DNA of 64,000 nucleotides from an uncultured Clostridia bacterium. Its GTDB lineage: Bacteria; Bacillota; Clostridia; Christensenellales; UBA1242. The stretch spans positions 14,527-78,526 of the forward strand of contig CAKVNM010000004.1 in the NCBI GenBank assembly GCA_934777505.1, written 5' to 3'. Under the pieces are notes generated by a model. The model had not been told where the DNA came from. It did not search any database and saw only the letters and a program-made list of their open reading frames with translations. Made by a program: the position numbers and the translations under genes. Below, piece by piece: positions 51,092 through 55,170 of this stretch (the stretch's first letter is position 1; each line of letters begins with the position of its first letter).

Positions 51092-51940
51092 ATGGGAAGT
51101 TACAAAAATTTAGTTAAAGACGATATGCTTTCACAAAACACGCTCGACAAGGTGTTTCTTGACAGTGAAAAAATTAAAAAATTGAAAGCAAACAGAAAGA
51201 AAAAAAATGATAAAATCAAAACCATTTGCAGTTATACATTTTGTATATCGTTGCTATTTGGCGTTGGCGGAACAACAGTAAATTCTTGCGTGCAATCATT
51301 TGATAGATTTTCGGGAGTCAACACAAATTTGATTCGTAAAACAGTGTTCCAAACACCAGTTTGTTTAGATACAAAAGACGGCGAAGTTTTGATTAATATC
51401 AAAGATGCCTTTACAGACACACAAAAGCAACAAATTGTTGATGGAATTACAAAACTTGACAACATTCTTGATGGAATCAACTATACTGTTACATTTGAAG
51501 ATAAAGATGTAAAAAAAGCAATCAATATCACAAGTGCGGATTCAACTATCATTAAAAACGCTATGGCAGAAACCAGAAGTTATATCAATACTTTTACAGC
51601 AAGAGTAACATATCCAATGAGTATTGTTGTTAATAGCGATAGCATACGAAAAAATCCAAAGGCTCTAACAAGAATAATTCAACACGAACTTTTGCATACA
51701 CTAGGTTTTGAAGATTTGTATGACAATGACCATTTTGGATGCATGATGTATTATAGTTATACTCCACAGGATAAGTATTCGCCAGAAGAACTAGCAATAT
51801 TAAAACAAGTTTACTCCAAAGACTTTACAGGATTAAAAGAGTCTAGACCAACAACAATTATTAGACCAACCGAACTAGAAGTAATCGACAAAACCGAAAC
51901 AGAAACTTCTAGCGAACAAGATTCACAACTAATTTTTTAG
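51092..51940 (+). CDS. Membrane-anchored metzincin-like zinc protease, paralogue 1
   Basis: TM anchor. HELLHTLGFEDL (HExxHxxGxxD) followed by MMYY (Met-turn-like). Confidence 0.6.
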   Translation: MGSYKNLVKDDMLSQNTLDKVFLDSEKIKKLKANRKKKNDKIKTICSYTFCISLLFGVGGTTVNSCVQSFDRFSGVNTNLIRKTVFQTPVCLDTKDGEVLINIKDAFTDTQKQQIVDGITKLDNILDGINYTVTFEDKDVKKAINITSADSTIIKNAMAETRSYINTFTARVTYPMSIVVNSDSIRKNPKALTRIIQHELLHTLGFEDLYDNDHFGCMMYYSYTPQDKYSPEELAILKQVYSKDFTGLKESRPTTIIRPTELEVIDKTETETSSEQDSQLIF

Positions 51941-51950
51941 GAGAGAAAAA

Positions 51951-52739
51951 ATGAGAAGAAAAAAAGATGAATACAAAATTGCAGATGATGAATATGCTGA
52001 CTACGAAGCATTAACATGGAAAGACAAAGCACTCAATATTATTCTAGGATTAGAAATTACAGTTGTAATTGGTGCTATAGCAGGTGGTGTTGCAGGAAAA
52101 ATTGTTGCCGACAACAGATTTCAAGGCGTTGATGAATCAAGGTTTATCAAAACAATTTTTAATGTCCCAGCACACTTGCCAATTTCTAATGGAGAAGTTC
52201 ATTTGAACATTCTTGATGAATTTTCAGATGAAGAAAAAATGCAACTTGTAGAAGGTATTAGAAGTCTTGATGAAGATGCATCTGGCTTTAACTACAAAAT
52301 CACATTTGATAATAATGAAATAACAAAAGGTATCAATATTAAAACAAAAAAGCATGTTGAAAAAGATAGTGATTTACAAGTTATTGCGGATACTTCATTG
52401 CGTATGGGCTTTTTGTCTGCAACGATAAAATATCCTATGTCAATTTCGTTTGATATGGAAAATGTGCAAAAATATAAAGCAAATATTTCAACTGTTGTAA
52501 AACATGAATTATTGCATACTCTTGGTTTTGCTGACTTGCGAGAAGATAAAGACAGACATGAGTTGATGTACTATTGCTGTGGTGAAGATTTGAGTCTTAC
52601 TGATGAAGAGAAGAAAACTTTGAACACAGTATACTCACCTGCAAGAACAGGATTATATCAAGTTGATTATCCAACGAGCATAAAAGTTGTTGAGAATAAA
52701 AAAGTTGAAGAAGCAGAAGAAGAAATAGTTTTACAATAA
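51951..52739 (+). CDS. Membrane-anchored metzincin-like zinc protease, paralogue 2
   Basis: TM anchor. HELLHTLGFADL followed by LMYY. It is colinear with and similar to the upstream gene over most of its length. Confidence 0.6.
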   Translation: MRRKKDEYKIADDEYADYEALTWKDKALNIILGLEITVVIGAIAGGVAGKIVADNRFQGVDESRFIKTIFNVPAHLPISNGEVHLNILDEFSDEEKMQLVEGIRSLDEDASGFNYKITFDNNEITKGINIKTKKHVEKDSDLQVIADTSLRMGFLSATIKYPMSISFDMENVQKYKANISTVVKHELLHTLGFADLREDKDRHELMYYCCGEDLSLTDEEKKTLNTVYSPARTGLYQVDYPTSIKVVENKKVEEAEEEIVLQ

Positions 52740-52767
52740 AAAAACAGGAATTTTCCTGTTTTTTTGT
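52738..52767. terminator. Bidirectional terminator
   Basis: Hairpin ACAGGAA / TTCCTGT flanked by an A-run and a T-run, between convergent genes. Confidence 0.7.
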
Positions 52768-52787: not shown

Positions 52788-53828
52788 CTATTTTCTAACT
52801 CTTTGATAGAAAACTTCGCCTTCTTGGCTCTTAAAGTAAACGCCGATGATTTTCTTTTTCTTTGCATTGATGATAGAGAACACGGCTCTTTTTCTTGCGC
52901 CACCATAAATATTAACAGTGGTGGTGTCGCTCTTTACAAACACATTATATGCTCTAATTCTGCCCATATTGTCAACCACGGTTATGCCGTCATAGTTGAG
53001 CATATCCAAGAACAAATTGCTCATTCCAATAAGTTTTGCTTCACTCGCACTTTTGGATTGAGTGAATAGTTTATTAAAGCAGATTGGTTCTTTTAGCCAA
53101 ATTCCGTCTTTCAAAAAGCCGTCATCTTCGTAGTTTTTGTCAATAACAACGCAGATAGTGCCATGAACATTTTTAAACACATTTTCAAAAATATTGCCGT
53201 AGAGAGTTTTAATTTCTTCTAACTTTTTCTTTGTTGTTCTAAGTTTAGAAAAACTTGCGTCCACAAACTCGTTGATTTCTTCTTTGTAATTCAAAACTTT
53301 TTTGGTACATAGACCAAAGTTGATTCTAAGTTCGTTTTCTTTTAAGCCTTTAACAATAATGCAACTGTTTGTGTAGGCACTGGTTAAAAACGCATGGATT
53401 TTGTCCGCCTTTTCTTTTAGTGACCTTTTTTCAAACAAGATTGTGTTAAAATTTTTGTCTTTAATAGAATTAATGCATCTGTATATTCCATATACCAATT
53501 TGCCGTTTTCTTCAACATTGATATAAATATTCCAGTCGTGAACGCAGAAAGGGGCAAGTGCTTTCATTCTAGAGATGAACATACCTTCGTTTTCGTCATG
53601 GAACATTTCAAGAGTGTAGGAGTTTGGAATGGCTCTATCGATACTTTCGATGTCGTTGGTTATCAAAATGTTTGGCTTGATGCAAGTGCCTTCTTCTTCG
53701 TAGTTTGTTAGTTTATTAAAAAAATTTATGTACTGATTGAGCAATCCTTGTGGAAAATTCTCCCACTCCATGTTGATAAAATTAATCAAATTATCGCTAG
53801 CACTTTGATAAAAAATGTTTTCAAGCAT
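52788..53828 (-). CDS. Protein with divergent diadenylate-cyclase (DAC/DisA_N)-like C-terminal domain and unknown N-terminal domain
   Basis: The C-terminal roughly 85 aa read LNYDGITVVDNMGRIRAYNVFV ... YGGARKRAVFSI ... IGVYFKSQEGEVFY. This parallels the DAC motifs HDGAvII ... GTRHRAAlGiS ... vvVSEETG. I do not recognise the N-terminal roughly 250 aa. Confidence 0.5.
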   Translation of the reverse strand: MLENIFYQSASDNLINFINMEWENFPQGLLNQYINFFNKLTNYEEEGTCIKPNILITNDIESIDRAIPNSYTLEMFHDENEGMFISRMKALAPFCVHDWNIYINVEENGKLVYGIYRCINSIKDKNFNTILFEKRSLKEKADKIHAFLTSAYTNSCIIVKGLKENELRINFGLCTKKVLNYKEEINEFVDASFSKLRTTKKKLEEIKTLYGNIFENVFKNVHGTICVVIDKNYEDDGFLKDGIWLKEPICFNKLFTQSKSASEAKLIGMSNLFLDMLNYDGITVVDNMGRIRAYNVFVKSDTTTVNIYGGARKRAVFSIINAKKKKIIGVYFKSQEGEVFYQRVRK

Positions 53829-54005: not shown

Positions 54006-54039
54006 ACAAAAAAGGCTATCTTAGTTTACTAAGACTGCC
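54006..54039 (-). terminator. Intrinsic terminator after divIC-like gene
   Basis: Interrupted hairpin (GGC..CTTAG / CTAAG..GCC) followed by a T-run on the minus strand. Confidence 0.55.
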
Positions 54040-54312
54040 TTAATATAACACTTCTTCGTTATCATATTTCATGTTTTCGTTTTCCTTGCATTTGTCTTCA
54101 ACATATTGGTTGTAGTTGTCTTCAAGGTCTTTTTTAAAATCGCTTTTTTCGTTGTACTCAGTTTGGGCTTTGCCGTATTCGCTATCAAGGGCATTGCTTT
54201 GATTTGTTAGTTTTGCAAGGCTGATATATTGAACAAGTAGCACAACGCCAAGCACAATCATCACGCTAAACGCTAGGTATTTTACAAATTTCCAAACTCT
54301 TGAACTATCCAT
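54040..54312 (-). CDS. Septum formation initiator (DivIC/FtsB-like)
   Basis: One TM (YLAFSVMIVLGVVLLV) followed by a coiled coil. The ATG at 54312 shares its A with the yabQ TGA (TGATG coupling). Its position after yabP-yabQ matches Bacillus. Confidence 0.6.
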   Translation of the reverse strand: MDSSRVWKFVKYLAFSVMIVLGVVLLVQYISLAKLTNQSNALDSEYGKAQTEYNEKSDFKKDLEDNYNQYVEDKCKENENMKYDNEEVLY

Positions 54313-54692
54313 CACTTCAACAATTTTTGCATAAGTCTTGATTTTGGCTTTGTGCAAAAAATTCTCCTATAAATTTTTACACAACCATTATACAAGAATA
54401 AAAATATTTTTTCAACTAAAAATCCTATCGAAATATGTTCAATAATGTTGCCAAGCACAAAAGCAATCAACAGGTAGAGCCTAAACTCGCCAAAATTTAA
54501 CAAGTTTTTTGCTAGAACAAAAACAACTGCGCAAAAAGTGACAAAAGCAATGTCGGTGGCAAGGCAAACAAATTTTTGATTGTTAAATGTTTTGCAAACA
54601 AGATTTTTTGCTTCAAATACTGCGCCCGACAAAACGCCAAAGTATAACATTCCCAAAAAGATTAGGGGTTGGCAAAGTGTTTCGTAAAGCAT
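54312..54692 (-). CDS. yabQ: Spore cortex biosynthesis protein YabQ
   Basis: Small multi-TM protein with NFGEFRLYLLIAFVLG, typical of the YabQ family. It lies directly after yabP. Confidence 0.7.
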   Translation of the reverse strand: MLYETLCQPLIFLGMLYFGVLSGAVFEAKNLVCKTFNNQKFVCLATDIAFVTFCAVVFVLAKNLLNFGEFRLYLLIAFVLGNIIEHISIGFLVEKIFLFLYNGCVKIYRRIFCTKPKSRLMQKLLK

Positions 54693-54699
54693 GGGCTAC

Positions 54700-54978
54700 C
54701 TATGAAAAAATCCTTTTAAAAAAGTTCTTGCCAGATTTGTTCGAGTTAAGTTTGAGCGACTTAACTTCGCCTTCGATGTCGATAAGACCCGCTGTGGTGT
54801 CGAGTTTTAAAACATGAAGTCCGCTCCCTTCCAAACTTGCAGGCTCGCCACAAATCGTCATGTTGATGCATTGCTCGGTGGCGCTAATCACTTTTGTTAC
54901 TCCTGCAATGCTTGTTTGATTTTTGTTGGTTATAACAATTTTGGAATTTTTTACTTTTTCAACCGTTTGATTTTCCAC
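54700..54978 (-). CDS. yabP: Sporulation protein YabP
   Basis: ITNKNQTSIAGVTKVISATEQCINMTICGEPASLEGSGLHVLKLDTTAGLIDIEGEVKSLKL matches the YabP family pattern. The likely start is GTG at 54978, 7 nt after GGAGAG. The track ORF extends further upstream. Confidence 0.75.
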   Translation of the reverse strand: MENQTVEKVKNSKIVITNKNQTSIAGVTKVISATEQCINMTICGEPASLEGSGLHVLKLDTTAGLIDIEGEVKSLKLNSNKSGKNFFKRIFS

Positions 54979-55170
54979 ACTATCACTCTCCAATTTTTGA
55001 TTTATATATTTTATTTTATATGTTACTAAGATATGCAAATAAAATTTTAAAAATCCCGCAATTTTGACATATTTCTTTTGAATTTGACAAAACAAGCACC
55101 TAAAATTCAAAATTTTTACTAACAGTGTTATTTTCATGAATACTATAATTTTTTTGATAGGGGAGTGTTT

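Follow-up and report, generated by a model that had tools for sequence, protein, structure and literature searches.

The window analysed here, a 64,000-nucleotide (nt) stretch of DNA from an uncultured bacterium of the order Christensenellales, encodes on its reverse strand a 346-amino-acid (aa) protein whose C-terminal part is, on the evidence of sequence profiles and a predicted structure, a real and very divergent diadenylate cyclase (DAC) fold. This domain follows a conserved N-terminal domain, and distant relatives of the protein are coupled to a partner gene in defence islands and on plasmids. Judged by the gene tree and by substitution rates, the window's copy has lost the partner secondarily and is under strong purifying selection. 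The explanation that we favour as a whole, and to which we give an even chance, is that the gene encodes a domesticated autonomous nucleotide-signal synthase, composed of the divergent DAC domain and an N-terminal gate. The DAC-like open reading frame (ORF) and the parts of its product are:

52788..53828, reverse strand: DAC-like ORF encoding a soluble two-domain protein of 346 aa (40.2 kDa, pI 8.5, no transmembrane (TM) segment)
53295..53828, reverse strand: N-terminal alpha/beta domain, residues 1-178; its stand-alone AlphaFold2 (AF2) model has a pLDDT of 88.8 and a pTM of 0.84
53691..53702, reverse strand: Y-E-E-E motif, residues 43-46, the top conserved feature of the N-terminal domain and invariant in alignment A1
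52791..53294, reverse strand: helical linker and divergent DAC-fold domain, residues 179-346, of which ~204-324 align to CdaA and DisA
53142..53165, reverse strand: HGTICVVI strand, residues 222-229, aligned with FGALIFLV of DisA, HGALIVV of 2FB5 and GALIV of CdaA
52980..52991, reverse strand: DGIT, residues 280-283, corresponding to the catalytic DGA motif; D280-G281 are invariant and Ala is replaced by Ile
52884..52904, reverse strand: GGARKRA, residues 309-315, corresponding to GTRHRAA; R312 is invariant, R314 nearly so, and Thr is replaced by Ala
52815..52829, reverse strand: SQEGE, residues 334-338, in the place of SEETG; S334 and Q335 are nearly invariant, G337 is invariant and residue 336 is E or D

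The maximum Kyte-Doolittle hydropathy over 19 residues of the protein is 0.99. Its gene is present in one copy in the genome, with a GC content of 34.1% compared to 34.8% for the window. Checked against the DNA, the ORF and the three motifs DGIT, GGARKRA and SQEGE lie where the first-pass annotation of the window had placed them.

The DAC fold, the active site and the N-terminal domain

Four independent lines of evidence converge on DAC alone and thereby identify the fold of the C-terminal part. In Pfam, DAC (PF02457) is the sole family that recurs among homologs of the protein. It is matched by 10 members of a close set of 40, with a best E of 2.3e-5, and by 7 members of a diverse set of 80, with a best E of 1.1e-5. 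Searches of PDB sequences with the single sequence or with a profile of the close family return no match; a profile of the 80 diverse members (alignment A2) retrieves no DAC structures other than DisA (E 0.011) and 2FB5 (E 0.044), the latter being a Bacillus cereus CdaS homolog (PMC8573169). The underlying alignment is colinear and pairs HGxLI with GALI, DGI with DGA, and GGARxRA with GTRHRAA. In hhalign, the C-terminal half aligns, again colinearly, over 104 columns with 13 CdaA sequences of the same order (P = 6.7e-5). Further, the ten best PDB matches of Foldseek to the AF2 model of the whole protein (pLDDT 76, C-terminal domain ~70) are all DisA chains, with probabilities of 0.96-1.00 and E-values of 1e-3 to 3e-2, compared to probabilities of at most 0.38 for non-DisA matches and at most 0.06 for those ranked next.

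Both the Pfam search and the superposition of an AlphaFold model on DisA had been suggested by the first-pass annotation, which assigned the last ~85 residues to a DAC domain. The structural comparison yields DisA at the top of the Foldseek list, and the Pfam search yields DAC as the only family recurring among homologs, with a sub-threshold match in the 346-aa protein itself. Consequently the fold is upheld by Foldseek, the A2 profile and hhalign, whereas the extent has to be revised: the DAC-like domain spans residues ~204-346 and includes the upstream HGTICVVID strand, the equivalent of GALIV.

The catalytic motifs are altered and conserved at once. The replacements of DGA by DGI and of GTRHR by GARKR, read from the sequence at the outset, are real, and an Ile or Val occupies the position of the DGA alanine throughout the superfamily. 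The middle residue of RHR is K313 here and varies across the superfamily. In A2, which has a mean column identity of 24%, the invariant residues are E45, E46, G223, D280, G281, G310, R312 and G337, and Y43, P52, K89, W99, G114, H222, F297, G309, A311, R314, S334 and Q335 are conserved to at least 90%. Replacement of DGA or RHR abolishes c-di-AMP (cyclic di-adenosine monophosphate) synthesis in CdaS (PMC4568413), and DAC catalysis requires head-to-head dimers of DAC domains (PMC8573169). In the superfamily, conservation of the Asp-Gly pair, both arginines, the glycine loop and the acidic residue of SQ(E/D)G holds down to ~22% identity; in the partner-less clade described below, the active-site residues and YEEE are likewise invariant or nearly so. 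Dead enzymes usually lose precisely such catalytic residues. Thus, the superfamily-wide conservation of D280-G281, R312 and R314 argues for an active enzyme, and the pattern as a whole, as far as sequence can tell, fits a functional site whose details have changed better than a dead one. An active nucleotide cyclase, with the N-terminal domain as its gate, appears to us slightly more probable than the contrary for the 346-aa protein. As its product, c-di-AMP would be a possible, somewhat doubtful candidate; otherwise the product would be something related.

The N-terminal domain is conserved along with the DAC-like part. Superfamily-wide, Y43, E45, E46, P52, K89, W99 and G114 are invariant or nearly invariant, with E45 and E46 invariant both among the 80 diverse sequences of A2 and in alignment A4. 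By sequence, the domain matches nothing in Pfam, NCBIfam or PDB, and Foldseek against PDB finds no meaningful neighbour (best E 0.07, probability 0.15, TM-score 0.20). A degenerate DAC repeat, comparable to DACNH in CdaG, was considered and rejected, as hhalign gives P 0.38 against the C-terminal half and P 0.56 against CdaA. The description of this region in the first-pass annotation as a domain without recognisable relatives is therefore accurate, and its size is corrected from 250 aa to ~175 aa.

A two-gene superfamily and its partner-less branch

An exhaustive profile search at E <= 1e-3 assigns the protein to a superfamily with 602 clusters or more (50% identity), most of them of 340-355 aa with both domains matched. 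The two halves of A2 match the 346-aa ORF with E 6e-44 (N-terminal) and 3e-53 (C-terminal), which constitutes a full-length superfamily match. The superfamily is widespread in non-sporulating Proteobacteria, and members with 22-34% identity to the 346-aa protein reside in neighbourhoods of the conflict type. Their neighbours comprise:

type III restriction-modification (R-M) genes, a DUF2326 protein and a giant Metallophos/NACHT protein
type I R-M genes and an integrase
a PhdYeFM antitoxin
a PLD-DEAD-DUF3427 protein, an SLFN-like helicase, a MazG-like protein and AbiEii

On four independent contigs, an unannotated protein of 433-448 aa is encoded 3' of the DAC-like gene, adjacent to it or overlapping, next to type I or III R-M genes, toxin-antitoxin (TA) genes and integrases. 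These four partners, which share 34-39% identity with each other, are located at:

L041:9033-10370, partner gene
L044:4789-6135, partner gene
L046:7868-9196, partner gene
L050:7076-8377, partner gene

Soluble and all-helical, the partner measures ~430-445 aa. The partner family as a whole (403-448 aa) is conserved and unnamed, has no Pfam match above threshold, and is always encoded directly downstream, often with an overlap of 1-4 nt. Moreover, the superfamily forms of 539-608 aa (P0209, P0222, P0240, P0254) are fusions that contain the C-terminal partner motifs H-x3-NFY-x-EP and GN-x-YG. The cassette of DAC-like and partner gene is also found on two plasmids: a mobilizable one of Vibrio sp. 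dhg, where a type II R-M pair and IS3 are its neighbours, and a conjugative one of Agrobacterium, where it adjoins a nucleotidyltransferase and patatin pair and a polymorphic-toxin gene; in both plasmid cassettes the two genes are annotated as "hypothetical protein". Translational coupling or fusion to the partner, in defence islands and on plasmids, is the state of the gene in most lineages and points to an ancestral context as a candidate two-gene nucleotide-signalling conflict module. The 346-aa protein and 10 distant members have no meaningful match in PADLOC 2.0 or PHROGs, and no homolog of the DAC-like protein was found in the phage genomes searched.

The Agrobacterium tumefaciens plasmid, pAtCG920 (locus L138, 4689-9275), carries the cassette in divergent orientation to the nucleotidyltransferase and patatin-like phospholipase pair, which resembles CBASS (an anti-phage signalling system based on cyclic oligonucleotides). 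Two putative nucleotide-signal synthases thus lie side by side on this plasmid.

In Christensenellales, the gene has a different distribution of contexts. The source genome (1.02 Mb, 99% complete) belongs to a Genome Taxonomy Database (GTDB) family in which 56 of 121 genomes, from 25 of 58 genera, carry the DAC-like gene, with presence consistent within each genus listed; the named relatives are uncultured Christensenellales and Clostridia metagenome-assembled genomes (MAGs) from gut and rumen. A survey of 80 species-level loci yields the following arrangements, with identities to the 346-aa protein:

yabQ, divIC, DAC-like gene: 8 of 80 loci, comprising the window's genus (76-78% identity) and a sister group (55-57%); 9 tree rows including the window
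pheS, pheT, DAC-like gene: ~50% identity; pheT in 14 loci, 12 so labelled in the tree
DAC-like gene, partner, with overlaps of 1-4 nt: 45-50% identity; 21 loci
DAC-like gene, then a 513-aa membrane protein: 39-45% identity; 16-18 loci

By hhalign (probability 100%, E 6e-43, 417 columns), the partner found in Christensenellales and the one in defence islands are homologs. In the source genome, no partner homolog was found by hmmsearch --max (best E 0.15) or tblastn (best E 0.027). In the maximum-likelihood (ML) tree of the DAC-like gene, the window falls within a clade of 34 rows, supported by an SH-aLRT (Shimodaira-Hasegawa-like approximate likelihood ratio test) value of 98, all of whose members lack the partner. 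In a sister clade every member bears it, as do all four outgroups of known context, and the solo state is thus most simply read as a derived loss. Further, context labels are clustered on the gene tree, with 9 changes compared to 49 in shuffles, which argues for vertical descent at stable chromosomal positions. The ratio of nonsynonymous to synonymous substitution rates (dN/dS) against orthologs is ~0.06, the DAC-like half being lower (0.03-0.04) than the N-terminal half (~0.09); all are rough values given that dS is saturated.

Several further observations concern loci of this survey. In one sub-branch of Christensenellales (a subset of L083-L107), a fixed order of 4-5 genes encodes a protein of 260-349 aa, a protein of ~276 aa resembling short-chain dehydrogenases/reductases, the DAC-like protein, the partner and a 309-aa protein, which suggests a larger conserved operon. 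One MAG contains two copies of the DAC-like gene (CAYSUG010000011.1, locus L120, and CAYSUG010000020.1, locus L130), each followed by the 513-aa membrane protein; this could reflect a duplication or a mixed bin. Nested inside the Christensenellales clade are also genes from records titled Spirochaetales bacterium (L068), Prevotella sp. (L082) and Lachnospiraceae bacterium (L118), of which L082 has the pheS-pheT context and L068 and L118 have other contexts. The titles of these three records are probably a matter of mis-binning or mislabelling rather than of horizontal transfer.

Genomic surroundings and c-di-AMP background

In the window, the DAC-like gene is located between two terminator-like hairpins and downstream of a sporulation cluster:

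54700-55137, reverse strand: yabP, upstream neighbour; Pfam YabP E 3.5e-10
54312-54692, reverse strand: yabQ, upstream neighbour; Pfam Spore_YabQ E 1e-10
54040-54357, reverse strand: DivIC-like protein of 105 aa, assigned by position and architecture together with a weak Pfam FtsL_2 match
54007..54041, reverse strand: hairpin and U-run directly 3' of the divIC-like stop codon, found by ViennaRNA folding and missed by a consensus terminator scan
52736..52767, both strands: A-run, hairpin and T-run resembling a bidirectional intrinsic terminator, directly past the stop codon of the DAC-like gene and common to the convergent metalloprotease-like gene

The yabP-yabQ-divIC unit ends 211 nt upstream of the DAC-like gene on the same strand, with spoIIE divergent upstream, and the hairpin at 54007..54041 divides this unit from the DAC-like gene. 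With terminator-like hairpins on both sides on its own strand, a monocistronic gene is a reasonable assumption, as the first-pass annotation had held. The position that it had given the gene, downstream of divIC, is likewise correct, with the identity of divIC itself depending on the position, architecture and weak FtsL_2 match listed above. A scan for sigma-70 promoters upstream of the DAC-like gene, in which sporulation-sigma promoters were not sought, gives none above shuffle expectation.

As called, the yabP ORF of 145 aa has an N-terminal extension of ~60 residues ahead of the YabP domain (residues 66-128), and its true start is probably internal. On the other side of the DAC-like gene, two tandem paralogous genes for metalloprotease-like proteins with the motif HELLHTLGF (51092-52739, forward strand) converge on it. 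Relatives of the same genus lack this pair at the equivalent position and carry rplJ-rplL there instead.

The genomic background is poor in known c-di-AMP components. Of 151 genomes sampled from the order, 142 encode a canonical DAC of the CdaA type, compared to 1 of 121 of the window's family, and this lone genome is fragmented (110 contigs) with an estimated contamination of 4%. The source genome has no match to PF02457 and none to a lineage-specific CdaA hidden Markov model (HMM) at maximum sensitivity; the question raised by the first-pass annotation, whether a canonical cdaA, disA or cdaS exists elsewhere in the genome, is answered in the negative. Moreover, no CdaR/YbbR, DarA/PstA, PgpH-type 7TM protein, RCK_C domain or c-di-AMP (ydaO) riboswitch was found there. 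Its DHHA1 proteins are RecJ and two DHH-DHHA1 proteins of the NrnA/Pde2 type, which are not diagnostic. The c-di-AMP network seems to have been lost altogether from a Firmicutes lineage in which the sporulation genes spoIIE, yabP and yabQ persist. Among weak PF02457 matches in sibling genomes, candidates for a second divergent DAC paralog were rejected, one being a 6-phosphofructokinase and the rest unrelated ORFs.

Proposed role, alternatives and comparison with known systems

According to the favoured explanation, two DAC domains would pair head to head, like those of other DACs, and from two nucleoside triphosphates (NTPs) the paired domains would form a cyclic dinucleotide, either c-di-AMP itself or something related, with the N-terminal domain acting as a sensor or gate. 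In a sub-branch of gut Christensenellales with ~1-Mb genomes (34 species), the partner of the candidate ancestral conflict module has apparently been lost, and the gene persists on its own in stable housekeeping neighbourhoods. There it would encode a domesticated autonomous signal synthase serving housekeeping functions and not defence. More tentatively, and with less confidence than in the explanation as a whole, we envisage that the lineage dropped the canonical c-di-AMP system and domesticated the synthase half of an anti-phage module as its sole cyclic-(di)nucleotide synthase, which would make c-di-AMP or, in view of its rewired DGI/GARKR site, another product for housekeeping signalling.

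Several points weigh against a domesticated active synthase. The 346-aa protein itself stays below the gathering threshold of Pfam DAC (11.7 bits against a cut-off of 27, E 0.2, residues 271-330), and pLDDT in the AF2 model drops to under 50 in the GGARKRA loop (residues 300-323). The Thr of GTRHR, replaced by Ala here, is reportedly important for catalysis in Listeria monocytogenes CdaA. An extra DHH-DHHA1 phosphodiesterase co-inherited with the DAC-like gene was considered and rejected, as there is no association (mean of 2.05 versus 2.26 copies). The genome contains no recognisable cyclic-dinucleotide receptor and hence no known target for a product. Moreover, 65 of the 121 sibling genomes lack both the DAC-like gene and a canonical DAC, and CdaA is thus not necessarily replaced by the DAC-like gene where it is missing. 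The tree was built by a quick method, with SH-aLRT support, a midpoint root and long outgroup branches, and no experimental study of any superfamily member was found in the literature searched.

Some of these points would equally fit a pseudo-enzyme or receptor, whose DAC-like domain would bind ATP, c-di-AMP or some other nucleotide and produce no cyclic dinucleotide, while the N-terminal domain would let the protein serve as sensor or adaptor. The altered DGI and GARKR motifs with a His position that varies across the family, the sub-threshold Pfam score, the absence of the searched c-di-AMP receptors from the genome and the lack of a co-occurring phosphodiesterase are all consistent with such a role. 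Nevertheless, we consider it unlikely, since the Asp-Gly pair and both arginines remain invariant or nearly so to ~22% identity, SQ(E/D)G keeps its acidic residue, and the genome has no DAC able to provide c-di-AMP as a ligand. A more radical doubt is that the DAC resemblance is a chance similarity of motifs in an unrelated domain. It could appeal to sequence E-values that are all marginal (0.2 in Pfam, 0.011 for the profile against PDB) and to TM-scores that are low when normalised to full length, yet it is extremely improbable: three independent methods reach DAC proteins only, four motif blocks are colinear, and a wide gap in Foldseek probability separates DisA from every other match.

Two further alternatives concern the purpose of the protein. 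Since distant and intermediate relatives have R-M systems, a CBASS-like pair, TA genes and integrases as neighbours and also occur on plasmids, it is conceivable that the solo protein is still anti-phage, as a single-gene defence system with its N-terminal domain as sensor or effector. For the window's copy this seems rather improbable, as the conserved partner is missing, presence is uniform within genera, and context tracks the gene tree (9 against 49 shuffled label changes); in addition, its neighbours are of the housekeeping type (divIC, rplJ/L, pheST), the GC content of the gene equals that of the genome, dN/dS is ~0.06, and neither PADLOC nor the phage genomes provide a match. The link to sporulation suggested by the first-pass annotation would make the protein a cyclic-dinucleotide synthase specific to sporulation, regulated together with yabP-yabQ-divIC and functionally analogous to CdaS. 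Its location 211 nt downstream of this unit on the same strand, with spoIIE divergent upstream, agrees with this view, as do the adjacency kept in the window's genus and in a sister group at 55-57% identity and the weak profile match to the CdaS homolog 2FB5. In contrast, the adjacency is found in 8 of 80 loci, confined to the window's genus and this one sister group, other branches have unrelated neighbours, and a terminator-like hairpin parts the DAC-like gene from divIC. The restriction to one sub-branch and the intervening hairpin suggest that the divIC adjacency is a lineage-specific accident. The protein also has no YojJ-type N-terminus, and the superfamily is widespread in bacteria that do not sporulate; the sporulation link is not supported in the form suggested, and we give a CdaS-like function very little credence.

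The findings bear on how cyclic-dinucleotide signalling is surveyed. In Firmicutes, c-di-AMP is regarded as near-essential, and surveys of its synthases rely on Pfam DAC-type profiles. The present superfamily of at least 602 clusters escapes such profiles and may be missing from current DAC classifications. Provided that its proteins are active, the census of cyclic-dinucleotide synthases would be incomplete, the cassette would represent a new two-gene nucleotide-signalling defence module, and gut Clostridia considered "DAC-less" may still possess a messenger of this kind. A strongly conserved partner-less copy whose 1-Mb genome contains few candidate targets would offer a convenient entry to the product and to the role of the N-terminal domain.

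Compared with CdaA, DisA and CdaS, the 346-aa protein has the same fold, as judged by predicted structure and profiles, with colinear blocks GALIV/HGxIC, DGA/DGI, GTRHRAA/GGARKRA and SEETG/SQEGE. It differs from these canonical DACs by its sub-threshold Pfam score and by carrying Ile in place of Ala, Ala in place of Thr, and Lys or a variable residue in place of His. CdaA possesses three N-terminal TM helices and is encoded in a cdaA-cdaR-glmM operon, whereas the 346-aa protein has no TM segment and no operon context of the CdaR or GlmM type. CdaS, with ~200 aa, begins with the two-helix YojJ domain; here, a 175-aa alpha/beta domain without a YojJ match takes this place. In DisA, the DAC domain is N-terminal and precedes a helical spine and, at the C-terminus, a helix-hairpin-helix (HhH) DNA-binding domain, while in the present protein DAC is C-terminal, no HhH match is found and the chain ends 9 residues beyond the SQEGE block.

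Two systems from immune loci, both described in a preprint (PMC13640721), come closer in context. The comparison with the 22 DAC families of Galperin (2023), which the preprint cites for CdaG, draws on Pfam results and on the preprint's account. CdaG, compared here by its description only, consists of DACNG, DACNH, DAC and a C-terminal helix bundle (~575 aa). So described, it is likewise a multi-domain DAC at immune loci, and its length and helical tail resemble the fused forms of 539-608 aa. In contrast to this domain composition, the 346-aa protein and the long forms show no Pfam domain matches other than one weak sub-threshold DAC match on a long form, and the N-terminal domain of the 346-aa protein gives no DAC-like hhalign signal. 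PanDA, as in the distant members of the superfamily, combines a DAC-fold protein with one other gene in defence islands. However, PanS is a minimal DAC of ~150 aa and PanE a 2TM-beta-barrel effector (PMC13640721), whereas the superfamily has an additional 175-aa N-terminal domain and a soluble helical partner, which the window's copy lacks.

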